Shown: one piece after another, positions 1 through 57,027 of the stretch
Numbering within the stretch: the stretch's first letter is position 1
Layout of the letters: each line of letters starts with the position of its first letter
Sequence record: MT446408.1
Strand: one strand, 5' to 3'
Length of the DNA stretch: 64,000 nt
Source: Escherichia virus TH35
The notes under the pieces: model-generated
What the model saw: only the letters and a program-made list of their open reading frames with translations
What the model was told of the DNA's origin: nothing
Databases searched by the model: none
Made by a program: the position numbers and the translations under genes

Positions 1-160
1 TAGGCCAGAAGCTGCTGTTAATCTTTTTGCCGCGCTCGTCGGTCTGCACCGTTGCTTCAGGCGCAAACACGGTCATGACGCGTTCATCTTCTGGAATGCC
101 TCTTTGGAGTTCCGTCAAAAACTCTTCGATTATTTTTGCTTCTTCTCTTAAACTAGCCAT
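1..160 (-). CDS. hypothetical protein, partial (runs off window start)
   Basis: ATG at 160-158 on reverse strand preceded by GAAGGA RBS; open to position 1 (MASLREEAKIIEEF...); divergent from gene at 321. Confidence 0.4.
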   Translation of the reverse strand, partial: MASLREEAKIIEEFLTELQRGIPEDERVMTVFAPEATVQTDERGKKINSSFWP

Positions 161-320
161 CTTTCTTTCCTTCGGTGATCAATACCTGCAGTATAATATT
201 GAGTGATACAAAGTCAACAATATTTACCATTTAGTTCACAATTTCGATTTACTTTGCTTTATACTATATCTGCAATTATACTATCAGAAAATATTTCCGC
301 ACTAACAAAGGTCGCCTGAA

Positions 321-647
321 ATGAACGAAAAAGAGACGAAGCAACGCGAACGTGCAACACACGTCGGAATCGTTGAGTCCTTCCTTAATACAAGATTGAA
401 TTCAAGCCTGACAATCATGCGATTCCTGGGTCAACCAGACAGAATCAAATTTATTTTTGCCGCAAATCCGGTATCGCTGTACATCCCTGTTGAATCCATG
501 GCGTACTTAGTGCGCGACGAGAAAGGATGGAAGATACCAAACACAACTGTTTTCTTCAGCCATGTTGATGGTGAGATGTTTGAACGAAAAGAAGATTGCC
601 ATTTTATTCCAGTATATCTGGACCTTGAAAGCGTAGTGGAGTTATAA
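321..647 (+). CDS. hypothetical protein (108 aa)
   Basis: ORF with AAAGG RBS 9 nt upstream; TAATG stop/start overlap with downstream helicase. Confidence 0.55.
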   Translation: MNEKETKQRERATHVGIVESFLNTRLNSSLTIMRFLGQPDRIKFIFAANPVSLYIPVESMAYLVRDEKGWKIPNTTVFFSHVDGEMFERKEDCHFIPVYLDLESVVEL

Positions 648-1831
648 TGAACATTCCAGAATTTAATGATGAGCCAGTGATTCAGTTTAACGCGCAACAA
701 ATCGACGCCATCGAGAAAGCCGTTGCATGGTACAAGCGATTGCAGGACGGTAAAACGACGAAGCGCGTGTTTTTCATCGCTGGCTATGCAGGGACTGGTA
801 AAACCTCTATTGCTCGCGAGATTGTGCGCCGCTGTGTCGGTGAGTACGGCGCTATCTATATTGCGCCGACCGGAAAGGCTGCAAGCCGATTAAAGCAAAA
901 AGGCTGTCGTGGCGCTAAGACCCTTCACCAGTTCATCTATAACGTGCGCGGCGTAAATGACGACAATGAGCCAATCTTTTCGAGAAAGTCAAAGCTGGAT
1001 GAAAGGCCGCACCTTGTTGTACTCGATGAAGCGTCGATGGTTGGCGAGTGGGACACAGAGCGCCTTCTTGATCACCGCATCCCTGTCCTGGCATTAGGCG
1101 ACATTGGACAAGTCCCTCCGGTAAAAGCCGCCGCCTACTTTACTGAAGATGCCGTTGACGTACTGTTAACCGAAATCATGCGGCAAGGGAAAGAGTCCAA
1201 CATAATCCGCGCCTCCTTCTTCGTGCGCCAAGGCAACCGCCTTCCTCCGCGTGAATACGATGACGTCAAAGTATTGGCAGAATCGCCGCGCGTTACTGCA
1301 TTGAAGAAATTCATGGGCGAAGATGATCAAATTATTTGCTCCTATAATAGCACCAAAGATAAATGGAATTCATTATTACGGCAAGTGAGCGGACGTATAA
1401 CGCCAATGCCAGGAATCGGCGAGAAGGTTATTTGCACCTTCAACCAACACGGGCCAGGATTCTGTAATGGCGAGCAAGGGATTGTTATTAGCTATGAGCC
1501 AGTGCCGGACTTTGAAAGGGATGAAGACGAGTCGAATGAAATAATGTATGTCAACTTACGTTCATTAACTGATGGTAAAGATATAAAGGTGAAGATCAAT
1601 CCTCTTTCCTTCTCTACTGATCAGGAAGTGCGCAAAGAAGCGCAACGCGCTGTTGGTGGGATGGACTATGGCTATGTCATCACGGTGCACAAATCGCAAG
1701 GCAGCGAGTGGGACAATGTGTGCGTGCTGGAAGAAATCTTGCGCGGCGTTCCGTACTCCAAGATGATGTACACCGCTATCACCCGTGCTAAGAAGAATCT
1801 GACCGTGTACCGTGATTTGAAAGCGCGTTAA
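647..1831 (+). CDS. SF1 DNA helicase, Dda/RecD-like
   Basis: Walker A GYAGTGKT, Walker B VVLDEASM, C-terminal VITVHKSQGSEWDNV motif typical of RecD/Dda-type helicases. Confidence 0.85.
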   Translation: MNIPEFNDEPVIQFNAQQIDAIEKAVAWYKRLQDGKTTKRVFFIAGYAGTGKTSIAREIVRRCVGEYGAIYIAPTGKAASRLKQKGCRGAKTLHQFIYNVRGVNDDNEPIFSRKSKLDERPHLVVLDEASMVGEWDTERLLDHRIPVLALGDIGQVPPVKAAAYFTEDAVDVLLTEIMRQGKESNIIRASFFVRQGNRLPPREYDDVKVLAESPRVTALKKFMGEDDQIICSYNSTKDKWNSLLRQVSGRITPMPGIGEKVICTFNQHGPGFCNGEQGIVISYEPVPDFERDEDESNEIMYVNLRSLTDGKDIKVKINPLSFSTDQEVRKEAQRAVGGMDYGYVITVHKSQGSEWDNVCVLEEILRGVPYSKMMYTAITRAKKNLTVYRDLKAR

Positions 1832-1990
1832 TGTTGACGTAAATTTACGAAAAATAAAACTGAAAATCAGTTTAATTAAAGTGGCATTGCCGCCATAGTT
1901 TTTAGTTGCTACTGGCGGCGACTGAAGGCATAATTAAGTTATCCCAAACGGGGAATATAAAATAAACTAATTTATTTAAGGACTGTGAAT

Positions 1991-2830
1991 ATGGCCGAAG
2001 CAATCAAAGTATTATCTAAAGAAGAAAAACAAGCAGCCGCAGCAGAACGTCGTCGCGTGGCTGAAGAAAAACGCCTGGCTAAAAAGAAAGAAGCCGAAGA
2101 AAAACGCCAGAAGCGTGAGCAGGAAAAACAAGCCAAGCGTGAAGAAGCTGCGCTGAAACGCAAGCAGGCTGCTGATGAGAAGGCTCAGAAGCGTGCTGAA
2201 GAAGCAGCTAAGAAAGCTAAAGAGCGTGCAGAAAAGGCTGCTGCTAAGAAAGCAGAGCGTGAAGCCGCTAAAGCAGCAAAAGAAATCGAAAAGGCAAAGG
2301 CTAAAGAAGAAGCCAAGCGCCTGAAAGCTGAGCAGGCTGCGGCCAAGAAAGCAGAGCGTGATCAAGCCCGTGCTGCAGCGAAGGCCGAAAAAGAGAAGGC
2401 CAAAGAAGAAGCTAAAGCGAAACGCAAGGCAGAGCGTGAAGCTGCTAAGATTGCGGCGAAAGAAGCTGCAGAACAGCAGAAAGAACAGCGTAAGAAAGAA
2501 GCTGAAGAACGTCGCAAAGCCATCGCAGAACGTAAGGCTGCTAAAAAGGCAAACGGTCAGCGTCGTGCAAAAGCCACTCACTTCATCTACACTGGCAATG
2601 GCCTGAGCCAGCCGCAAGAGCATTCCACCCGTGGACGCGTTCTGGCGGCGATCAAAGAAGGCGAAGTTGGCGTGGCGCAGTCTATCGATGAGCTGGGCGA
2701 AAAAGTTAAAGATCAACTGTTTGGCGCTTCCGTTCGCTCCTACCTGAGCAAGCTGGAAGAGATGGGCCACATCGAGTTTGTCGATGTTGAATCCAACGAC
2801 GATGCCGAAGACGGTGATCAAGCGGAATAA
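1991..2830 (+). CDS. Lys/Ala/Glu-rich low-complexity charged protein with small acidic C-terminal domain
   Basis: ATG 1991 with AAGGA RBS (track start 1985 is GTG); about 200 aa of KAE repeats then HFIYTGNGL...DDAEDGDQAE; promoter-like TTGCTA-17-CATAAT upstream, terminator downstream. Confidence 0.65.
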   Translation: MAEAIKVLSKEEKQAAAAERRRVAEEKRLAKKKEAEEKRQKREQEKQAKREEAALKRKQAADEKAQKRAEEAAKKAKERAEKAAAKKAEREAAKAAKEIEKAKAKEEAKRLKAEQAAAKKAERDQARAAAKAEKEKAKEEAKAKRKAEREAAKIAAKEAAEQQKEQRKKEAEERRKAIAERKAAKKANGQRRAKATHFIYTGNGLSQPQEHSTRGRVLAAIKEGEVGVAQSIDELGEKVKDQLFGASVRSYLSKLEEMGHIEFVDVESNDDAEDGDQAE

Positions 2831-2856
2831 CCTGTAGGACGGTTATAGCGGTAATT

Positions 2857-2884
2857 GACCCACACTTGTTGTGGGTCTTTTTTT
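2857..2884 (+). terminator. rho-independent terminator
   Basis: hairpin GACCCACA-cttgtt-GTGGGTC followed by T7 run. Confidence 0.6.
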
Positions 2885-2969
2885 CGTCTGTACTAAATAG
2901 AAATGACTTGTTGCTGTAAAATAATTTAGCTATTATACTTCTCATATCACCCACAAAGGACAAATGAAC

Positions 2970-3959
2970 ATGAAACAACCTGTAATGATTATCGGCGGCG
3001 GTTTGGCAGGACTTATTACCGCGTGTCACTTCCCGAACTCCATTGTGTACGAAGCAGGGGAACGAGCGCCACAGCACAAGGCGCTGCTACGCTTTCGCGG
3101 CGAAGAAGTAAGCCGTATTACCGGAATCCCTTTTAAGGCCGTGACAGTCGATAAGGCTGTGTATTTTCGTGGTAACTACTATCACGACCACTGCCCGATT
3201 AACCTTGCCAACATGTACTCTATGAAAGTCACCAACCAGTTTGGCAGCCGCTCAATCATGAAGCTTCAAACCGCTACGCGCTACATAGCGCCGGATGACT
3301 TTTATGATCAACTTGTCGATAAGCTTGGCGACCGTATATTCTTCAATACTCCGGTCGACACCCTCTGCGGCTATAGCGAGACGCCAATCATCAATACATC
3401 GCCGCTGCCCGTCATGATGAAGCTTGCTGGCATTGATCAAAAGCTCGACTTCTCGTTTGATAAGGCAAATATACGCGTTTATCGTTTTAAGATTAAGCGC
3501 AAGTGTGAACTGTATCAAACAATTTACTTCCCTGACTATTCTGTAAGGACTTACCGCGCATCAATTACTGGTGACACGCTGATTATCGAAACAATTCCAT
3601 TGGTAAGCGTCAGCGCGGCAGCAGTTGAAGCCGCTGGCGGCATTACCCGTTATCGCGACATGAAGTTGCGTGCAGAAGTGGACGAAGTTCTGACCGCTTT
3701 TGGTCTTTCATGGAATGACATCTCTTTGGAAGAAGTTGAAAAGGTTGACCAGAAGTATGGCAAGATTGTCGACATTCCTAAAGACTTGCGCCACGCCTTA
3801 CTGCTCCAGCTGACTATGGATTTGAACGTGTTTAGTGTCGGTCGATTTGCTACATGGCGCAACATCTTGCTTGATGACGTAGCTCATGACCTTGTTGAAG
3901 TTGAAAAACTCATCAAAGCAAATAACTATCAAAAATTTGCTTATATTGCTAATAAATAA
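2970..3959 (+). CDS. FAD/NAD(P)-binding Rossmann-fold oxidoreductase
   Basis: N-terminal GxGxxG dinucleotide-binding motif VMIIGGGLAGL; start taken at second ATG (2970) for RBS spacing, track start 2964. Confidence 0.6.
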   Translation: MKQPVMIIGGGLAGLITACHFPNSIVYEAGERAPQHKALLRFRGEEVSRITGIPFKAVTVDKAVYFRGNYYHDHCPINLANMYSMKVTNQFGSRSIMKLQTATRYIAPDDFYDQLVDKLGDRIFFNTPVDTLCGYSETPIINTSPLPVMMKLAGIDQKLDFSFDKANIRVYRFKIKRKCELYQTIYFPDYSVRTYRASITGDTLIIETIPLVSVSAAAVEAAGGITRYRDMKLRAEVDEVLTAFGLSWNDISLEEVEKVDQKYGKIVDIPKDLRHALLLQLTMDLNVFSVGRFATWRNILLDDVAHDLVEVEKLIKANNYQKFAYIANK

Positions 3960-13149: not shown

Positions 13150-13413
13150 ATGGTACGCATCCTTGAACGTTACAAAAATGAAGCTACTGGCGCAATCGCT
13201 TTCAAACGTCTTTTGGTCAAAGAAATTGACGGAATGTTTCGCATTGTTAAAGAGTTTGATTATGGCAACGGTGCTGGGGTGAATACCGTTATCATGCCTG
13301 GCATCAAGGCGTATAAAACCTTAAAAGGCGCTGAGAAGGCTTTGTCGGCTTGGAAACCTGAACGTTATCAAATGACCCGTGTTGAAGGGCTAATGCAAGA
13401 AGGTAAAATATGA
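13150..13413 (+). CDS. hypothetical protein (87 aa)
   Basis: ORF after promoter at 13088; ATGA overlap with next gene. Confidence 0.5.
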   Translation: MVRILERYKNEATGAIAFKRLLVKEIDGMFRIVKEFDYGNGAGVNTVIMPGIKAYKTLKGAEKALSAWKPERYQMTRVEGLMQEGKI

Positions 13414-13967
13414 GCAATATTAATTGGGAAGATGATTTGCCGCAGGTCGCTCCTGAGAGCATTCAAGAGCGCCTTGCGCGCTTAGTATCTGAATTGGCAG
13501 AACGCCAAGAAGCTTTGACAGAGCTTGAAGATGAAGCTGATATGCAAAAGCAGCGCATCAGTGAAATCAAGACTGTTTTACTTCCTGGCGTCATGGATGA
13601 GCTTGGCGTGTCTGAAATCAAGCTTGAAGACAAGACCAAAATCAAGGTCGAGTCGAAAGTGAATGCTTCAATCAAGAAAGAAAACGAATTAAAAGTTTTC
13701 GATTGGCTTGTCAACAACGGTTACGGCGGCCTGATCAAGTCCAGCGTCACGGCTGAGTTCGGTCGCGAAGAAATCGAACAGGCGCAAGAGATTGTTGCCG
13801 CGCTGCGTGAAGATGGTGTTGAAGCAACGTTGAAACAAGGCGTTCATTCTGCTACACTGAAGTCATTTGTAAAAGAACAACTGGAAGCGGGCAATCCAGT
13901 TAGTGAAGATATTAGCGTTTTTGAATACAAAGAAGCTAAAATAACCTTGCCTAAAAGCAAAAAGTAA
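13410..13967 (+). CDS. hypothetical protein with N-terminal coiled coil
   Basis: 185-aa acidic protein in the replication/recombination module; no motif recognised. Confidence 0.5.
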   Translation: MSNINWEDDLPQVAPESIQERLARLVSELAERQEALTELEDEADMQKQRISEIKTVLLPGVMDELGVSEIKLEDKTKIKVESKVNASIKKENELKVFDWLVNNGYGGLIKSSVTAEFGREEIEQAQEIVAALREDGVEATLKQGVHSATLKSFVKEQLEAGNPVSEDISVFEYKEAKITLPKSKK

Positions 13968-14026
13968 TTTAACCTTTATCTTGAAATCAGGTTGCCACGA
14001 AACTTGATACTATAGGAAAATATCAA

Positions 14027-14887
14027 ATGTCTAAGAAAGAAACTACCGAAGTTGCAGTGAAAAACACCCAGATGTCCGCTATGGCTGATTTTGTCGACAT
14101 GACCGATTTTGGCGCTGGTTTTGAAGGTGCCGATGCCGATGCGTATGCCATTCCTTTTATCGTCGTACTGCAGAAGATGTCTCCTATGGTCGACGAAGAT
14201 GATCCAAAACACGTTCCTGGCGCAAAAGCTGGCATGCTTTACAACACCGTTACTGGTGAGTTGTATGACGGCAAGAAAGGCGTGCAGATCATCCCTTGCG
14301 CATTCAAACGCACCTTCATCCTTTGGGGCGGTCGCGAGTCCGACGATAAAGGCTTTAAAGGTGAATTCACCAAAGAGCACGTTGATGCAGAAGTAGCGGC
14401 AGGCCGCGCTGTTGAGATCAACGGTAAAGTGTTTGTGCCGGACGAAAACGGCAAAGTGCACGAGAAGAAATCGCCTTACTACGCAGATACACGTAACCAC
14501 TTCGTAATTCTGTTGAACGAAGAAACTGGTGAATTTGGTAGCGCAATGTTGTCTTTGACTTCTTCGATGATCAAGCCGTCTCGCATGCTGATGACCGCGC
14601 TGCAGCAGAAGAAAGTTCAGACTCCGCAAGGTCTGAAAACGCCGCCGACCTTTATGAACATCGTTCGCATGGGTACTGCATCCCAGTCCAAAGACGGGAA
14701 CACCTGGTCTGTTCTGAAGTTTGAGTTGGAAGGTCTGGTGCAGGACAAAGGTCTGTATGAAGTCGCCAAAGCATTCCACAACGATGTAGTTGGCGGCAAC
14801 GTTAACATTGACCGCAGCAAGCAGGAAGAAGCAAGCGGTGCCGCTGGCCCTGTTAATGAAACTCCGACCGACGCAGAAGAGTTTTAA
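14027..14887 (+). CDS. hypothetical protein; possible ssDNA-binding/annealing protein
   Basis: 286 aa ending in acidic tail ...ETPTDAEEF (terminal Phe) reminiscent of phage SSB C-termini; function inferred only. Confidence 0.45.
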   Translation: MSKKETTEVAVKNTQMSAMADFVDMTDFGAGFEGADADAYAIPFIVVLQKMSPMVDEDDPKHVPGAKAGMLYNTVTGELYDGKKGVQIIPCAFKRTFILWGGRESDDKGFKGEFTKEHVDAEVAAGRAVEINGKVFVPDENGKVHEKKSPYYADTRNHFVILLNEETGEFGSAMLSLTSSMIKPSRMLMTALQQKKVQTPQGLKTPPTFMNIVRMGTASQSKDGNTWSVLKFELEGLVQDKGLYEVAKAFHNDVVGGNVNIDRSKQEEASGAAGPVNETPTDAEEF

Positions 14888-38134: not shown

Positions 38135-39553
38135 TTATTCCCCTTTCAACCAAGCTTCAAACGCTTCGTCAGTTGCTGCAGAATCCGCAGCGGCCTTTTG
38201 TTTTGCGACTACACGCTGTTTTTGACCGTGTTCAACGCCGCGCAGATAATTATCCACCACGTCAAACTCAGCACCATCAACGCACTTCAAGCCTAACTTT
38301 TTAGCGCCATATTTCGCTACGGACTTGGAGTCCATAGTTGCATGATCAAAGGCACCAACAACTTTAGACAGGCGCTGGTAGAGGCTATTCTTACGAGCAG
38401 AATCAGCGTAGAAAGCAGCAACTGCTGAATCAGATGCCATTGAGTGTTCCCCTTTTGCTGGACCTGGCGACGCTTTCGCCGCTTTTGTCGGTTTGTCATC
38501 TTTTTCGACCGAAGCCCCCTTTACGTTGCTGTTTTGCAGGCCGCTAACCACATCTTCAGCTTTGTCGCAAGGTGATACATCTTCAGCCTTGACTTCAACT
38601 TCTTCGTCTTTGACTTCGGCTTCAACTTCTTCTTCATCACCTACCGCGCCACCTTTCAGTTTTGCAATAAGTGCTTCGATTTGGCTGATCAGTTGCGGAA
38701 GCTCGCCGCCAGCGTGAGATTCAGTTTCAACTTCAAACTTCTCTTCACCTTCTGGAGTCTCTTCAGCTTCTGCTTTGACTTCTGGATCAACCATCACTTC
38801 TTCACGTTCTTCGGTTGAATCCTTCTCTTCTGCTTTCACTTCAACTTCGTCCTGATGAGCAGCTTCGGTGCTCTCTTCATTCAGAAATTGTTCGAGCGCA
38901 GGGATCAGTGATTTCAGCTGTTCAACAGCATTATCACGCGCTTTACCTTTTAACGGTTTTGGCATGTCTAAATCCTCGTTGGATGGTGTTACAGTCGTCA
39001 AACAAAGATGGTCAAAGCAACGACCATCCAGCACCCGTGCACCTGGTACTCGACCAACGTCCACGAGAGCAATGTGGTTGCCGCGAAGAGTTGTCTGTAC
39101 CACTTCATACGGCTGCCCGTCAAACTCTCCAGACTGTATGATGAATTCACAGTCATAGCCCAAAGACAAGTCAACCTTTCCAGAATCGATGGCCTTCTTC
39201 AGACGACGGCTAAAAACTTTAAGGTCGCCGCGCATCCATGGCTTGTCATAATAAACATTGCCAGTTAGAACGCCATCAACGCCATACTCTTCGGGTGCTG
39301 TGTTATCCTCATCACCTTCGAATCCAGAAAGCATTTCGTGATTGTCGATGAAAGGGATATTTTTGAATGAATCTATCGCTTCGGGGTCTTTCACCGCTGA
39401 CTCTGGGCGATAAACTTTTACGATGCGATTCGGATCACCATCAAGTCCAACCTGACCTGCAGAATAATCAAAAATGCCAAATGACGAAATGGGACAACCC
39501 ACAATCGTCAAGAATCCATTTTTGTCAATTTCGCGTGCCGTTTGCATTCGCAT
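38135..39553 (-). CDS. putative prohead protease/scaffolding fusion protein
   Basis: globular N-terminal domain followed by Glu-rich low-complexity region (EVEVKAEEKD...EEKFEVETE). Confidence 0.5.
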   Translation of the reverse strand: MRMQTAREIDKNGFLTIVGCPISSFGIFDYSAGQVGLDGDPNRIVKVYRPESAVKDPEAIDSFKNIPFIDNHEMLSGFEGDEDNTAPEEYGVDGVLTGNVYYDKPWMRGDLKVFSRRLKKAIDSGKVDLSLGYDCEFIIQSGEFDGQPYEVVQTTLRGNHIALVDVGRVPGARVLDGRCFDHLCLTTVTPSNEDLDMPKPLKGKARDNAVEQLKSLIPALEQFLNEESTEAAHQDEVEVKAEEKDSTEEREEVMVDPEVKAEAEETPEGEEKFEVETESHAGGELPQLISQIEALIAKLKGGAVGDEEEVEAEVKDEEVEVKAEDVSPCDKAEDVVSGLQNSNVKGASVEKDDKPTKAAKASPGPAKGEHSMASDSAVAAFYADSARKNSLYQRLSKVVGAFDHATMDSKSVAKYGAKKLGLKCVDGAEFDVVDNYLRGVEHGQKQRVVAKQKAAADSAATDEAFEAWLKGE

Positions 39554-39659
39554 CCACCCTCAAATAAGTATTGTGTATTATATCTAATGAAAAAAACTTA
39601 GGCAAACAATAATTATGGTTTGAATATGTATAACAACCGATATAGCCGCGCCTTAATTA

Positions 39660-39930
39660 GTGTGATACGGATGATACGGATAAAATGAGGCGTATTTTTA
39701 TCCGTATCGGTGTATAAGCCGCGCTATCACTGGTGTGCTACGGATGATACGGATGATACGGATACTTTTCATATATAAGAGTTTATAAAAAAAAATAAAA
39801 TTAAATTAGATATATAATTTTAAATTAATTTATTTGAATTCCTATAAAGTATCGCGGCAACGCGTATCATCCGTATCATCCGTAAGATTCTTTTGAAAAC
39901 AACTACTTACTTGATACGGATGATACGTCA
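39660..39930. repeat. iteron-like region: TACGGATGA/GATACGGAT 9-bp repeats in inverted clusters around an AT-rich core
   Basis: GATACGGATGATACGGAT 39664-39681; ATCCGTATC 39700-39708; (TACGGATGA)x3 39739-39766; AT-rich 39770-39850; GTATCATCCGTATCATCCGTA 39864-39884; GATACGGATGATACG 39913-39927. Confidence 0.6.
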
Positions 39931-39971
39931 TTATACGCGTAAAATCCTGCGGCAATCCATTGCCAGGCGAT

Positions 39972-40109
39972 TCAGTGAATATTAAAAAGCACTCCAGCAA
40001 CTAAAACGCCAATCAGCATCGAGTCGTAAACAGCCCATTTCCAAGAAAGCAAAGAGTTGCAATTAATATTTCGCACTTTAACGTAACGTGACTGAATAAT
40101 CTTTTGCAT
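39972..40109 (-). CDS. small putative membrane peptide (45 aa)
   Basis: ATG 40109 with AAGAGGA RBS; hydrophobic C-terminus SMLIGVLVAGVLF; below track threshold. Confidence 0.35.
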   Translation of the reverse strand: MQKIIQSRYVKVRNINCNSLLSWKWAVYDSMLIGVLVAGVLFNIH

Positions 40110-52212: not shown

Positions 52213-52325
52213 AGTGTACTGCAAATTTACTGTGGGCACAAAATAGTACGGTACTGTCTAGGACTTTTTCTTTGAAAAGTTAGTGGACCAAATGTGTCGT
52301 ATTTTGATTAGTGTACTGCAAATTT
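52213..52325. repeat. two copies of AGTGTACTGCAAATTT, variant of the ATAGTGCAAAT family
   Basis: identical 16-mers at 52213-52228 and 52310-52325. Confidence 0.6.
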
Positions 52326-52414
52326 CATCAAGTACCAAAACGCACCAAAAGACCCATGCCCTAAAAACCACACGAACGCAATAATCAATCGCCGTTACAG
52401 TTTCCAGCGTTACA

Positions 52415-52674
52415 ATTCGAAAGCGAATGATTCGATACACAATAATATGAAGCATAATGATTCGAAAGCGAATGATTGCGTGTAGTATAATATCGGTGGG
52501 GATTATTCTAGATGCATGTAATTTCGCATGCGTACTATTTTCGGACGAAGGGTCGGCATATTCCTCGTTTTAGTTCGGAACGAAGGGAAAGTTTTGCGCC
52601 TTTATAAAACAACGACTTACGCAACCCGCCCTAACGGTCCGATATAGGTGTCTATATAAAACAAGGACTTACGC
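52415..52674. repeat. short direct repeats in a non-coding stretch
   Basis: ATTCGAAAGCGAATGATT at 52415-52432 and 52460-52477; TATAAAACAA[C/G]GACTTACGC at 52603-52622 and 52655-52674; recurring CGAAGGG words. Confidence 0.5.
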
Positions 52675-52840
52675 GATGTTCTCCATTTAACGTAATACCC
52701 GTTATGCGAACTAAGGAGCATCTCGAAGAAGATTATGAGGCGACGAAGGGAAGGATAAAGGAGTTTTCGCGGAGAAGCGCATCGAGATAGGGACGAAGAA
52801 AAGCCGCGACTAAGCGCGGCCTATTAGTAACGGAAGGATA

Positions 52841-53131
52841 TTATAAGGAGACAATTTTAAAATAAGTTACTTCGCCGCCGAGTTGCGGTACAGCGATATA
52901 TTCGCCGCCGATTTCGGTAATCGTATAAACGAAGCCGTTAATCGTTACGCGATAGGATACGATGTCCTCGTCGCGATACTTGTAAAGGTCGAGGAAGTTG
53001 ATCGGCTCATAAATAGACTCGATAATCGCGTCGACGTTAGAGAGATAAACGCTCTCTAAGGTTTCGCCAAATACGTTAGAGTTTTCGGAAGTTTCGACGC
53101 GAGCGGAACGGATAGCGGCTAAAGTAATCAT
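52841..53131 (-). CDS. small protein, paralog family member A (96 aa)
   Basis: MITLAAIRS... similar in N-terminus and overall pattern to 53767-54051 and 53239-53541; AGGAG RBS. Confidence 0.5.
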   Translation of the reverse strand: MITLAAIRSARVETSENSNVFGETLESVYLSNVDAIIESIYEPINFLDLYKYRDEDIVSYRVTINGFVYTITEIGGEYIAVPQLGGEVTYFKIVSL

Positions 53132-53155
53132 AATAATCTCCTAGTTGGTCGGGCG

Positions 53156-53176
53156 GGTAGCGACCTATTCGCTACC
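53156..53176 (-). promoter_or_regulatory. conserved 5' UTR stem-loop (copy 1)
   Basis: on coding strand GGTAGCG-AATAGGT-CGCTACC preceded by GGGATGAG; same loop and architecture as copy at 53721-53741 with compensatory stem changes. Confidence 0.5.
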
Positions 53177-53198
53177 TCATCCCCTCTCGATATAAAAC

Positions 53199-53227
53199 AT
53201 TATAGTATTAGTGTACGAAGAAGTAAA
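53199..53227 (-). promoter_or_regulatory. sigma70-like promoter for 52841-53131
   Basis: reverse strand TTTACT (53227-53222) - 17 bp - TATAAT (53204-53199). Confidence 0.55.
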
Positions 53228-53238
53228 GCACTTTTTCG

Positions 53239-53541
53239 TTATTTTGCGATAAAATGTTTATAAGCTTTATCGCCTTCTACGTCGATATACTCGACGATAA
53301 TTAACGCTTCGTCGCGAGGCGTAACCGTCTCGATAAGGGTAACGGCTTCGTCGTCGGTCTTCGCGAAGCGGATGGCGCTACGTTCGGCGTATTTCATATC
53401 GTCGAAGGAAAGGCCGACGAAGGCGAACGCGCGGACCTTAATAGCGGTCCCGTCTAGTTCCGCGTTAACGGCTTTAAGAAGAGAAGCGACGGTTAAGCGG
53501 TCTTCGTCGTAAGTAAGGATAGAAGAGATTAAAGTGGTCAT
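53239..53541 (-). CDS. small protein, paralog family member B (100 aa)
   Basis: start set at ATG 53541 after GGGAG RBS (track start 53598 is TTG and overlaps the promoter); MTTLISSILTYDED... Confidence 0.45.
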   Translation of the reverse strand: MTTLISSILTYDEDRLTVASLLKAVNAELDGTAIKVRAFAFVGLSFDDMKYAERSAIRFAKTDDEAVTLIETVTPRDEALIIVEYIDVEGDKAYKHFIAK

Positions 53542-53597
53542 AATAAAACTCCCGATGCTAGTAGAAGGAAGGGCCATCGCCCGTCTCGATATAAACA

Positions 53598-53625
53598 AGT
53601 ATACGCGAGTGTACGAAGAAGTAAA
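53598..53625 (-). promoter_or_regulatory. sigma70-like promoter for 53239-53541
   Basis: reverse strand TTTACT (53625-53620) - 16 bp - TATACT (53603-53598); near-identical to promoter at 53199-53227. Confidence 0.5.
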
Positions 53626-53679
53626 GAAAAAAGATAAAATAATTTATCTCATTTTTATCGAAAAAGTGCTTTACTTTTT

Positions 53680-53707
53680 TCTACACTATATTATAATGTA
53701 CTCATAT
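53680..53707 (+). promoter_or_regulatory. sigma70-like promoter for 53767-54051
   Basis: TTTACT (53680-53685) - 16 bp - TATAAT (53702-53707); shares CTTTACTT...TACAC core with the two reverse promoters. Confidence 0.55.
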
Positions 53708-53710
53708 CGG

Positions 53711-53748
53711 GACGGGATGAGTTAACGAATAGGTCGTTAACGCCCGTC
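53711..53748 (+). promoter_or_regulatory. conserved 5' UTR stem-loop (copy 2)
   Basis: GACGGGATGAG-GTTAACG-AATAGGT-CGTTAAC-GCCCGTC immediately upstream of AGGAG RBS. Confidence 0.5.
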
Positions 53749-53766
53749 GAGAACTAGGAGTTTAAA

Positions 53767-54051
53767 ATGGCTATTCTTAACGTTTCTTCCATCCGTAACG
53801 CTATCGTCGAGAACTACGGCGTAAAACAAATTTTATCCGAAGTCTACGCCGCGAACGTAGACCAAACTATCGAGGCAGGTGGGGTAACGGTCGCCGAGGC
53901 TTTTAAACTTTACGCGGCGCTACCGGAATCGGACCGCGAAGCCTTCGAAGTAAACGTTAACGGATACTTCTTCGAAGCGGTCGAAATCGGTAACACCTTA
54001 CTCGTTATGGGCGAAGAAGAATTTGAGACCTTCTCCCTCGTCGAAGCGTAA
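53767..54051 (+). CDS. small protein, paralog family member C (94 aa)
   Basis: MAILNVSSIRNAIVE...; paralogous to 52841-53131 (shared NVD..IE, VNG.F, EIG, E.E.TF positions). Confidence 0.5.
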   Translation: MAILNVSSIRNAIVENYGVKQILSEVYAANVDQTIEAGGVTVAEAFKLYAALPESDREAFEVNVNGYFFEAVEIGNTLLVMGEEEFETFSLVEA

Positions 54052-54131
54052 GAGAGGATTTTTAGAGCGTCGTGCGCGACGCTTTAATAAAATTCTTTCG
54101 CGCCTAGCGCCCTAACAAATAGGAGTTTATT

Positions 54132-54758
54132 ATGGTTAGCTTAAATCGTTTCTCGACTAGCGGCGACGTTATCGCAACTAAGACCGCCGACCTCGTTGCA
54201 TTTTATAATGCAAATTCCGGTTCGAAGCCGATTAAGAAATTTTCGGACCGCCGGACCGCCGAGGCTCGCGTAATAGCGTTAATCGAGTCCTTAAACGCGC
54301 TCGATGAGCCGTCCAACGAATCGCCCATCCCAGACGCGAAGTCGCGCGAGGAAGTGCCCAGCGATGTAAAAACGCATAAGGCGCGTGCGGTCGTTAAAAA
54401 GTCCGAGCCGACCCAGGAAGAACTCGACGCGATGACCGACGAAGAGTATGAAGCCTTCGTTAAGAGCGGTTTAAACGATAGTGCAAATTGCGTAGTGCAA
54501 AATGGAACTCCTTCCCATCGCCGTTCAAATAGCGAAGGTATTGCGAAAAGTTGGGATAACAAGGAAGTGGCGCAAAAGCGTCTCACGCGTAACGGCGTTA
54601 TGGTCGAGGGTGTAGGCGAGTTCAAATCGGTCCGCGTAGCGTTTGCTGCGCTGGGCTTACCGGATAGCAAGCACATTCGCTTCCGCATGAAGCTTAAAGA
54701 AGCTGGACGATTGAACTTTGAGTTCGGCAACAAGTCCTACACCTTCCAGATCATCTAA
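54132..54758 (+). CDS. hypothetical protein (208 aa)
   Basis: ORF with AGGAG RBS; hairpin at 54064-54081 upstream; contains first ATAGTGCAAAT copies. Confidence 0.5.
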   Translation: MVSLNRFSTSGDVIATKTADLVAFYNANSGSKPIKKFSDRRTAEARVIALIESLNALDEPSNESPIPDAKSREEVPSDVKTHKARAVVKKSEPTQEELDAMTDEEYEAFVKSGLNDSANCVVQNGTPSHRRSNSEGIAKSWDNKEVAQKRLTRNGVMVEGVGEFKSVRVAFAALGLPDSKHIRFRMKLKEAGRLNFEFGNKSYTFQII

Positions 54759-54808
54759 TCGAATGGCGGCCCTTCGGGGTCGCTTTTCATAGTGCAAATT
54801 GGTGGCTT

Positions 54809-55072
54809 ATGAATACGCTTATTCTTATCGCTACGTTGTCCATCGGAAGTGGTCGCACCTTATCCCTTTATGATCATAGTGCAAATTGCGCTTACCCAAC
54901 GCGCGTTGCGGTGATAGTTAATAGTGCAAATCGAATGCTATTCGAGACTTGTTGGCGGGTCGATAACGAGAAAGGTCGGGTAGTCTTAGGTTATAGTGCA
55001 AATCTGCTGGTGGAGTCGTTCGATTGGACGGTTGAAGGCCGTAAATTGTTACGGAAAGTGACTAAAAGATGA
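54809..55072 (+). CDS. doubtful ORF spanning three in-phase repeat copies
   Basis: 87-aa ORF whose HSANCA, NSANRM and YSANLL segments are each encoded by an ATAGTGCAAAT copy; may be non-coding. Confidence 0.3.
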   Translation: MNTLILIATLSIGSGRTLSLYDHSANCAYPTRVAVIVNSANRMLFETCWRVDNEKGRVVLGYSANLLVESFDWTVEGRKLLRKVTKR

Positions 55073-55133
55073 CTTATAATAATACACTTTCTAACGCGTT
55101 TATGGTTGTAACCTTCCCCGTCGTATTACCGAT

Positions 55134-55173
55134 GGCCCTAGAAGTGGAGAAAATGTGTTCTAGGGCCGTTTTA
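55134..55173 (+). terminator. rho-independent terminator for the forward unit
   Basis: GGCCCTAGA (55134-55142) / TCTAGGGCC (55159-55167) 9-bp stem followed by GTTTTA. Confidence 0.5.
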
Positions 55174-55186
55174 TAGTGCAAATTGG

Positions 55187-55675
55187 CTAGTGGCGGGAGA
55201 ATTGCTCACCTTCTTTGGCCGCCTCTCCAAAATCCTTGTAGAAATCGTCCATAGAACGGCCCATTTTACTATTGCCGTTTTCATCAATCATCGTGATGCC
55301 GTAGATGATATTCAGTTCACGAATAGCATTAAGCTTGGCTGATGCCGCGACTTCTGGATCACGCACAAGCTTGACCAAATTGTGAATTGCACCTTTTACG
55401 CTCCACAAATCCTTTAGCGGCATTTCTTCCATACGCTTTTTGAAGCGCATTTTGTAGTACGGATTGCGTTGTGCGCAAAGGATTCGCTGGCCAGTGTAGT
55501 TATCCGTTGCAACTTCCATTCCAAATACTAGTGCAAAAGCTGCGCGCATGTCATGGCCCTGAATAACAAGGTCAATGAACTCATCGAATAAGGCCTGATT
55601 GTGCTCTGCAAATCGCGGGTCTTCAAAGTCTTCAGGCATCGCTACATAGTCTTGACTCATAGTGCAAAATCCCAT
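55187..55675 (-). CDS. hypothetical protein (162 aa)
   Basis: ORF; start codon region itself formed by two ATAGTGCAAA copies (reverse strand ATGGGATTTTGCACTATG). Confidence 0.5.
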   Translation of the reverse strand: MGFCTMSQDYVAMPEDFEDPRFAEHNQALFDEFIDLVIQGHDMRAAFALVFGMEVATDNYTGQRILCAQRNPYYKMRFKKRMEEMPLKDLWSVKGAIHNLVKLVRDPEVAASAKLNAIRELNIIYGITMIDENGNSKMGRSMDDFYKDFGEAAKEGEQFSRH

Positions 55676-55889
55676 AGTGCAAATTAATAGTGTGAATTAT
55701 ACAATGGATGAACATTATATTCAAGTGCAGATTGATGTTCATTATGGCTATAAACGTACACAAATCATATTGCGGAATGAATAGCGGACCGTGGTGCGTG
55801 GTGTACTGTTTGATACGTATAAAAGAAATCCATCCCTTTCGCCGCTTGTTATGCAAATCAATGACTTAGCCGCTGCTGGCTGGTTTAAG

Positions 55890-56230
55890 CGTATCATGAC
55901 GTATCATCCGTATTGCCGCAAGTCTTTGTTTTTACTTATATCTTACGGATAATACGTATAAATATAAGTTTAGTATAAGTATGAGGATATGAAAAAAATT
56001 AATTTAAATGTTTTTAAAATGGAGTTTATTTATTTTTGGAGTTTTATATATAACGATGCCCAGTTTTATCCGTATCATCCGTAAGATTAATGTACAAGCC
56101 AGGCGCGGCAAGGGCTGTACACTGATACGGATAAAAAAACATGACGTATCATGACGTAAGGGTGTACCACTTTGGAAAAGAGGAATCCAGGAACGGTGCG
56201 GCCTGCAGCCATGATACGCTTAAATTTTAG
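55890..56230. repeat. second iteron-like region, related to 39660-39930
   Basis: GTATCATGACGTATCATCCGTAT 55891-55913; AT-rich core 55960-56060; TTTTATCCGTATCATCCGTAAGATT 56064-56088 shares 21-mer ATCCGTATCATCCGTAAGATT with 39864-39890; GATACGGAT 56124-56132. Confidence 0.6.
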
Positions 56231-56490
56231 CCGTATTTTAGGCGTATCAAATGTGTGCAAACAACACGTTTCACGACACTAAAATTTCAATCCATAGATA
56301 ATTCCTAACAAACACCACGGACCAATAGACACGATCTATGAAATATATTTCTAAATATTTCCGCACAATTAATAAATAAAACACAACCTCATAATTATTC
56401 CATCGCAAAACACGACCCAAACGACAAAAGGCCGCATAAAGCGACCCATTGCACACATTCCATTCTTCAAAACACACAAATCAATGTTCT

Positions 56491-57027
56491 TTATCCGCTG
56501 ACCTTCCAGTCACCATTCCTTTTATCACGCTTCTTTAACTCCGTTTTAATGACATTATTATCCACAATAACTCCTAAACGGCGCAATTCACACATGACCT
56601 TGTGGCGATATTGTCGAAGCTTTTTGACGTCCATTGTGCTCCTTGAATAAGATAGTACCATAAAAATAATATCATCATTCATTTTGTAACGCATACAAGT
56701 TTTATAATGCCTTTTGAAAATTGCATTTACGGCATCTGTTTTCAGCAATTCATCCATTAATTCTGGATTCCCTTCACAGACGTTAATGACCCATTCATCC
56801 CTTGATTTTGCCGCTTTCAATCCCCTTAGAGTTAATAACTCATATAATGCCTTTCTGCACTTAGAGCAATCACCAATTGTCAAACTTGATTCCATTTCTT
56901 GAGCATCGGTCAACTCTGTATTGCCTTTGTTGAATTTACCGCACAAGCTGATTTGCTCGCCGTTGTCAAAGTAGTGGGCAAGTTTTGAGTATCGCGGCTT
57001 GCCCCATCCTGCAACGTTACCCATCAC
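56491..57027 (-). CDS. hypothetical Cys-rich protein (178 aa)
   Basis: ORF with paired-Cys motifs CGKFNKG...CSKCRK. Confidence 0.5.
   Translation of the reverse strand: MMGNVAGWGKPRYSKLAHYFDNGEQISLCGKFNKGNTELTDAQEMESSLTIGDCSKCRKALYELLTLRGLKAAKSRDEWVINVCEGNPELMDELLKTDAVNAIFKRHYKTCMRYKMNDDIIFMVLSYSRSTMDVKKLRQYRHKVMCELRRLGVIVDNNVIKTELKKRDKRNGDWKVSG

Follow-up and report, generated by a model that had tools for sequence, protein, structure and literature searches.

A Wifcevirus, i.e., an Escherichia coli myophage with a genome of ~68 kb to which a direct terminal repeat (DTR) is added, contains two paralogous copies of a complex intergenic element, 16 kb apart; each copy measures ~300-450 bp and is built on the 9-bp unit GATACGGAT/ATGATACG. 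Element 1 is located upstream of a head maturation protease gene and element 2 upstream of the gene for the small terminase (TerS), and the AT-rich core of the latter contains the position that corresponds to a physical end of virion DNA in related phages. We consider it reasonably probable that element 2 is the packaging-initiation site, recognized and cleaved by terminase, in which the flanking repeat arrays dock a phage protein, and that element 1 offers this protein a second, conserved site.

Anatomy and kinship of the two elements

The window, i.e., the complete stretch of 64,000 nucleotides that was analyzed, has an A+T content of 54%. Between positions 55000 and 57500 it displays 90-96% identity to 28 phage records, nearly all named Escherichia phages of the genus Wifcevirus, and the region around 39.7 kb reaches up to 99.8% identity with the same 28-record set. 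Wifceviruses are myophages of E. coli and Shigella with genomes of 66-72 kb, and they are distantly related to the Pbunavirus phages of Pseudomonas. The window runs antiparallel to the usual Wifcevirus map, for which the curated HansTraber_Bas100 record served as reference; by this record, the replication genes occupy 0.3-18 kb on the plus strand, and the minus strand carries the structural genes between ~46.5 and 18 kb and a long series of small reverse genes between 64 and 56.5 kb. Two neighboring ORFs of the replication module (13410-14887, plus strand) matched Pfam families named for cyanophage Pam3 gp33 (E = 2.6e-37) and gp34 (E = 4.2e-86). No known RNA families were found in the window.

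Element 2 is encountered in an 815-bp gap between the reverse ORFs 55187-55675 and 56491-57027, which is present as had been predicted. The original prediction confined the element to 55890-56230, where it does exist, but the element is larger, spanning ~55809-56252 as a whole with units that reach from 55811 to 56250 in arrays of both orientations around an AT-rich core (55959-56064; 80% A+T), which separates the inner inverted arms 55930-55962 and 56065-56097 by 102 nt. The arm on the DTR side (55884-55959) holds three units in minus orientation (55887-55914), including the degenerate GATACGTCA, two in plus orientation (55942-55959), and a GCGGCAA box on the minus strand (55913-55919). In the arm outside the DTR (56065-56250), units are located at 56068-56085 (-), 56124-56132 (+), 56142-56160 (-), 56213-56221 (+), and 56229-56248 (-), next to a CGCGGCAA box at 56104-56111 (+). 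Folding of the core as single-stranded DNA yielded z = -2 only, which is due to the inverted arms. Small ORFs have been annotated over the element, the terminus or equivalent regions in several records (Bas100_0088-0091, CPT_Mansfield_001, SP13_001, and TROPICALSUN_87/14), and an ORF of the window at 56271-56477 overlaps a terminator-like hairpin (56429-56447); the small ORFs annotated across 55809-56477 and its equivalents are probably not genes.

Element 1 (39663-39945) is the paralogue of element 2 and contains ten units, seven of which are perfect copies of GATACGGAT. Its inverted arms form a perfect match of 22 nt (39739-39760 and 39863-39884), its AT core (39764-39862) has an A+T content of 83%, and its sequence is 93-99.7% identical across the 28 Wifcevirus records. 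Both elements have a common syntax, in which units on each side of the AT core point inward and exactly 102 nt lie between the inner inverted arms, with further units and GC boxes (GCCGCG / GCGGCAA) outside these arms. The GCGGCAA heptamer is itself abundant in the window, with 48 copies on both strands vs 12.7 ± 3.7 in dinucleotide-preserving shuffles (maximum 26); the copies are mostly intragenic and have no obvious strand preference, and examples are found at 39854, 39949, 55913 (minus strand), and 56105.

The original prediction that the 56-kb locus is a second copy of the 39.7-kb element is borne out by a shared oligonucleotide, by unit enrichment, and by alignment. The 21-mer ATCCGTATCATCCGTAAGATT that had been proposed to occur in both copies is indeed identical at 39869-39889 and 56068-56088, on the plus strand in each case, and 100 shuffles produced no such match. 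Exact ATGATACG is confined to the two elements (11 of the 11 copies in the 64-kb window), and nine of the ten copies of GATACGGAT in the window, vs 0.24 expected, are located inside them. When up to two mismatches are allowed and the TACG core is kept fixed, element 1 has 10 units, element 2 has 13, and the other 63 kb together have 38, which gives the region around the core of element 2 a unit density ~40 times that of the rest of the window, with repeat words flanking the cut position. Moreover, local alignment of element 1 (plus strand) with element 2 (minus strand) extends over ~255 nt with a score of 101, vs 58 in direct orientation, whereas the shuffle controls scored 20.6-22.3 ± 2.5 with a maximum of 31; the similarity of the two regions is far above chance, i.e., ~30 standard deviations over shuffles. 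A chance or low-complexity likeness of two AT-rich intergenic regions could be proposed on the ground that their AT-richness inflates short matches, but its probability is reduced to practically nil by the identical 21-mer, of which none is expected, by the alignment score, by the restriction of ATGATACG to these two places, and by the conservation of the element pair in five genera.

The genome end and the neighboring genes

The homologue of the left physical terminus of virion DNA (56020-56021, minus strand) was deduced from the deposited starts of five end-opened Wifcevirus records that come from at least three laboratories (WFC and WFH; Ro157lw; SP13; Mansfield), four of which include both copies of the DTR. 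All five begin at the complement of position 56020 (5' ATTTTAAAA...) and run leftwards into the DTR; these termini are those of deposited records and published statements, and the starts of WFH, Ro157lw, and SP13 were possibly copied from earlier records. The end at 56020 falls in the middle of the AT core of element 2, ~7 nt off its dyad center. The earlier placement of element 2 inside a block of early genes is not tenable: the element straddles the left DTR boundary, with the virion-DNA end in its core and the small terminase gene as its left neighbor.

A terminal repeat of ~3.7 kb was described for WFC and WFH by Korf et al., and the Mansfield record notes a DTR of 3673 bp as a PhageTerm prediction. 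The linear WFC record (72,472 bp) contains its first gene twice (361-834 and 69049-69522), from which it follows that positions 1-3784 are repeated as 68689-72472, and in Kyle, a Pantoea phage, position 1 corresponds to position 69566, so that the same sequence is present at both ends of virion DNA. With the right boundary taken from the WFC record, the equivalent stretch of the window is 52267-56020 (3754 bp), and the half of element 2 to the left of 56020 is therefore found at each terminus of virion DNA; the other half, to its right, occurs once only, at the junction before the right-hand DTR copy. The right boundary of the DTR-equivalent stretch does not carry a copy of the repeat element.

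Some variation is found at this right boundary, which in the Mansfield record (PhageTerm) lies ~80 nt further in than in the WFC record (~52267-52350), whereas the left boundary is shared by all five records; the right end may be formed with lower precision or may be less well determined. An exact 16-nt direct repeat, AGTGTACTGCAAATTT, is present at 52213-52228 and 52310-52325, nearly symmetrical around the WFC-type right end (52266/52267), and a 43-nt imperfect tandem that holds CGAAAGCGAATGATT is located at 52406-52493, ~140 nt inside the DTR. The right end of Kyle is also close to AATGATT/AATCATT words. The repeats around 52267 may represent a right-end signal. A scan of IMG/VR with a shared 18-mer returned the known isolates and one metagenome genome of 68.5 kb only, and provided no new end information.

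The first gene inside the DTR (55187-55675, minus strand) is transcribed away from element 2 and encodes a TerS protein of 162 amino acids. Residues 7-152 of this product match PDB entry 7UXE, 'Small terminase', with E = 6.1e-34, the product matches phrog_4783, and its orthologue in the Mansfield record is annotated as terminase small subunit; the Pfam scan of this protein gave no match. According to a review, 7UXE is the decameric TerS of Pbunavirus E217 (PMC9611059). Between element 2 and terS, a sigma-70-like promoter, TTGAAT-17-TATAAT (55696-55724, minus strand), agrees with the consensus at 10 of 12 positions and is a consensus match only. On the other side, just outside element 2, the terminator-like hairpin at 56429-56447 (minus strand) ends the upstream block of small reverse genes.

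Element 1 has a comparable position relative to the gene for a DUF2213-type head maturation protease (38135-39553, minus strand), which lies downstream and is preceded by a near-consensus match to a sigma-70-like promoter, TTGCCT-17-TATAAT (39577-39605, minus strand). Just upstream of element 1, a 45-aa ORF (39972-40109, minus strand) has counterparts in the phages Kyle, 14-1, and TropicalSun. Common to the predicted peptides are a basic N-terminus, a W(K/R)W-like motif, and a C-terminal helix of hydrophobic character, which suggests a small membrane or virion peptide as the probable product. The 3' end of this ORF is overlapped by a terminator-like hairpin (39988-40010).

Conservation across genera and covariation of the repeat words

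Homologues of both TerS and the head protease are present in ~350 phage records, and the regions upstream of the two genes were compared in five genera. The two-site layout, with one element upstream of terS and one upstream of the head-protease gene, was found in Wifcevirus, Kylevirus, Pbunavirus, Myosmarvirus, and an unclassified Salmonella phage. The alignment score of the terS-upstream against the protease-upstream region was 101 in the Wifcevirus window (shuffle maximum 31), 125 in Kylevirus Kyle (36), 80 in Pbunavirus 14-1 (31), 100 in the unclassified Salmonella phage PCSE1 (26), and 62 in Myosmarvirus TropicalSun (32), where an annotated ORF covers the left arm. In Kyle, 14-1, TropicalSun, and PCSE1 an element likewise adjoins terS, which is the only conserved gene among those flanking the terS-proximal element in Wifcevirus, Kylevirus, and Pbunavirus; the TerS of Kyle is 43% identical. 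The genome end recurs at this place as well: the Kyle record (73,168 bp, with base 1 repeated at 69566) starts in the AT core of the terS-proximal element, and the record of Pbunavirus Ab27 has its start at the margin of the homologous element's AT core.

Despite this common layout, the repeat words differ between genera, namely CGTATCA / ATCCGTA in Wifcevirus, AATAACC / AATATCC in Kyle, AATTACC in 14-1, and CGTTATA / ATATCGG in PCSE1. A cross-table of these words in the four genomes gave diagonal counts of 51/37/29/43 and off-diagonal counts of 0-10, which indicates that the words are genus-specific and are common to both elements of a genome. The GCGGCA(A) box is present in both element arms of all genera examined. 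Because both loci of a genome carry the same binding word, a common sequence-specific binder is suggested for the two elements, and since phages of E. coli, Salmonella, and Pantoea differ in their words, this binder would most simply be a protein encoded by the phage and evolving together with its sites, instead of a conserved factor of the host. The shared regulator that was originally predicted can thus be retained as a common sequence-specific protein, deduced from the shared word and strengthened by the covariation in four further genera.

With respect to the gene downstream of each, the two elements of a genome point the same way in Kyle, 14-1, PCSE1, and TropicalSun. Element 1 of Wifcevirus is inverted relative to the protease gene, yet it is nearly invariant within the genus. 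From the sequence comparison, it is an in-place inversion of ~300 bp whose sequence is still strongly conserved.

Proposed packaging initiation, rival explanations, and known systems

Element 2 is most likely the packaging start site because it holds the physical left end and adjoins the small-terminase gene. The left genome end would be made on replicated concatemeric DNA, inside the AT core at the homologue of 56020 as judged from the deposited ends of the relatives, and packaging would proceed from there toward lower window coordinates, across terS and the terminal repeat of 3.75 kb, a direction that is suggested by the end positions. The flanking arrays of the 9-bp unit may serve as sequence-specific docking sites for a phage-encoded protein, as the covariation suggests, and the likeliest binder would be the decameric TerS that is encoded directly beside element 2, because terS alone is conserved among the flanking genes and its product is the DNA-recognition subunit. 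The bendable AT core of 102 nt would then be the segment that is distorted and cut; speculatively, units in tandem at 9-bp spacing and a core of 102 nt would allow the DNA to wrap around a decameric ring. Element 1, which precedes the head-protease operon, may be a second, conserved docking site for this protein, and in the role that we favor it would pair with element 2 or titrate the binder, comparable to the two-site pac synapsis of T4. Alternatively, element 1 may tune the adjacent near-consensus promoter of the protease-capsid operon or act as an origin.

Several findings stand against this assignment. To our knowledge, genomes have a single pac or cos site of the classical kind; here, a second full copy is located at 39663-39945 and is kept in five genera. 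Moreover, the core of element 1 in Kyle is almost identical to the cut region of element 2, so that a reason would be needed for the sparing of element 1. Finally, E217 TerS displayed no appreciable DNA binding in vitro according to the same review (PMC9611059), which counts against TerS as the binder. A stronger proposal, possible if rather doubtful, is that packaging in the lineage from Pbunavirus to Wifcevirus needs two separate terminase-binding elements, so that cleavage of the terS-proximal site requires synapsis with its protease-proximal twin or licensing by it, or that this twin acts as an origin that depends on terminase and links replication with end formation.

The proposal that both elements are replication origins, composed of iterons and an AT-rich unwinding region and served by an unrecognized phage initiator, would place the DTR end there since end formation and DTR duplication are replication-coupled. 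Inverted repeat arrays around a core of 80-83% A+T do represent an origin-like architecture, in which the unwinding region is recognized by composition only, and the copies are located at ~22% of the genome (15954-16256 of 72472 in WFC) and at the repeat boundary. The full conservation of element 1 despite its inversion versus the flanking gene fits an orientation-independent function, and the phage has its own polymerase, helicases, and primases. Nevertheless, origins at these loci are unlikely. No initiator- or regulator-like match was found in Pfam or PHROG for the ORFs flanking the elements, including TerS, the 45-aa putative membrane peptide, and a head-fiber-like protein, and no initiator family was found in Pfam for the 10 unassigned replication-module ORFs, although such missing matches are weak evidence. 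Element 1 is not accompanied by a GC-skew switch, a test that is uninformative because the skew only follows transcription. In addition, the only conserved neighbor of the terS-proximal element is a packaging protein, and an origin alone leaves the precise double-strand end in the core of three genera unexplained. The two origins that had been offered as a possibility thus gained nothing positive: no initiator was recognized, element 1 lacks a skew switch, and the repeat word is not of the host DnaA type. With respect to the last point, TTATCCGTA matches TTATCCACA at just 7 of 9 positions, and the word varies between phages of related enterobacterial hosts. A plasmid iteron origin was also rejected, as no similar DNA was found in plasmids, and so were satellites that mimic the site, as E. 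coli genomes contain no similar DNA.

A purely regulatory function, in which a phage regulator times the morphogenesis genes via the elements and the genome end is there only as a gene-free, AT-rich spot, draws on the location of each element between the terminator of the upstream unit and the near-consensus promoter of terS or the protease gene, both of which have functions in morphogenesis. Visual inspection revealed similar -10 boxes before both genes in Kyle, TropicalSun, and PCSE1 and, in 14-1, before the protease gene. Promoter matches are no commoner in the regions concerned than in shuffles, however. The repeats precede the promoters by 100-500 nt, element 1 has the inverted orientation in Wifcevirus, and a coincidental end in the core is unlikely across Wifcevirus, Kylevirus, and Pbunavirus; together, these points make regulation as the sole function improbable.

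The DTRs and the TerS assignment were already known from records and papers. Our literature search returned no account of a terminus element flanked by repeats, of the conserved twin that precedes the head protease gene, or of repeat words that covary with the genus, and no paper that links Pbunavirus or Wifcevirus with a pac site or origin. How ring-shaped TerS gains sequence specificity is an open question (PMC9611059), and the TerS structure of this lineage was solved (E217, 7UXE) without a known DNA target, for which the elements are a concrete candidate. The genus-specific words provide a built-in specificity test, as they can be swapped together with terS, and, owing to the conserved second copy, the two-site synapsis model that has until now been restricted to T4 becomes testable in phages that can be rebuilt: vB_Eco4M-7 (PMC11074155) and Pbunavirus phiR26 (PMC12345254) have both been rebuilt from PCR fragments. 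If the two-element reading is true, this lineage of more than 350 sequenced phages, therapy phages included, would provide a second, sequence-defined example of 'twin-ring pac synapsis'. The exact end and its signals are useful for the annotation, synthetic rebooting, and engineering of Wifcevirus and Pbunavirus therapy phages.

Among known systems, origins of the iteron type, including lambda ori, plasmid oriV, and HSV oriS, combine inverted or direct arrays of initiator sites with an adjacent AT-rich region, and HSV has several origin copies, some of which are located in terminal repeats. The elements described here differ from these in that no cognate initiator gene was recognized, a double-strand genome end lies in the core, and the neighbor is a terminase subunit. 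Phage T7 has its primary origin at ~15% of the genome, and the processing of its concatemers requires secondary origins next to the terminal repeat. It resembles the present case as a DTR genome in which repeat-boundary sequences are tied to end formation and an origin-like AT-rich element lies in the left fifth, whereas T7 origins are promoter-driven and without iterons, the T7 repeat is 160 bp, and no phage RNA polymerase is annotated in the relative Bas100.

Closer parallels are provided by packaging sites. The pac site of P1 is a stretch of ~160 bp inside the small-terminase gene pacA, with clusters of repeated hexamers on both sides of the cleavage region. Like this site, element 2 has clusters of a short repeated word to the left and right of a central cut region and is located at the small-terminase gene; it differs in its 9-bp unit, which occurs in both orientations and is not a Dam site, in its core, which is a 102-nt AT stretch, in the exact end of a 3.75-kb DTR instead of a headful series, and in the second copy. 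The pac sites of SPP1 and SF6 (pacL-pacC-pacR) are bound by a ring-shaped TerS. Bipartite repeats, which bind TerS there and putatively do so here, flank the cut site in both cases, and the TerS ring has outward HTH domains; nucleosome-like wrapping is discussed as a model for ring-shaped TerS (PMC9611059). In SPP1, pac is located at the terS-terL operon, whereas terS is here far from terL, on the other side of the genome, and the same review gives a terS-terL distance of ~58 kb for E217 (PMC9611059). The site is moreover duplicated here, upstream of the head protease gene, which is not the case in SPP1 and SF6.

Phage T4 has pac sites in genes 16 and 19, and the presence of two homologous terminase-site sequences in one genome is a feature in common with the present elements. 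In the 'twin ring pac synapsis' of Black's model, two stacked TerS rings recognize two apposed pac sites (PMC9611059), and for E217 TerS this review describes a C-terminal helix that is proposed to stack rings or promote higher-order oligomers, and likens its behavior to that of T4. The T4 sites are short, intragenic, and without fixed ends, whereas those of the Wifcevirus are large intergenic elements, one of which has an exact end.
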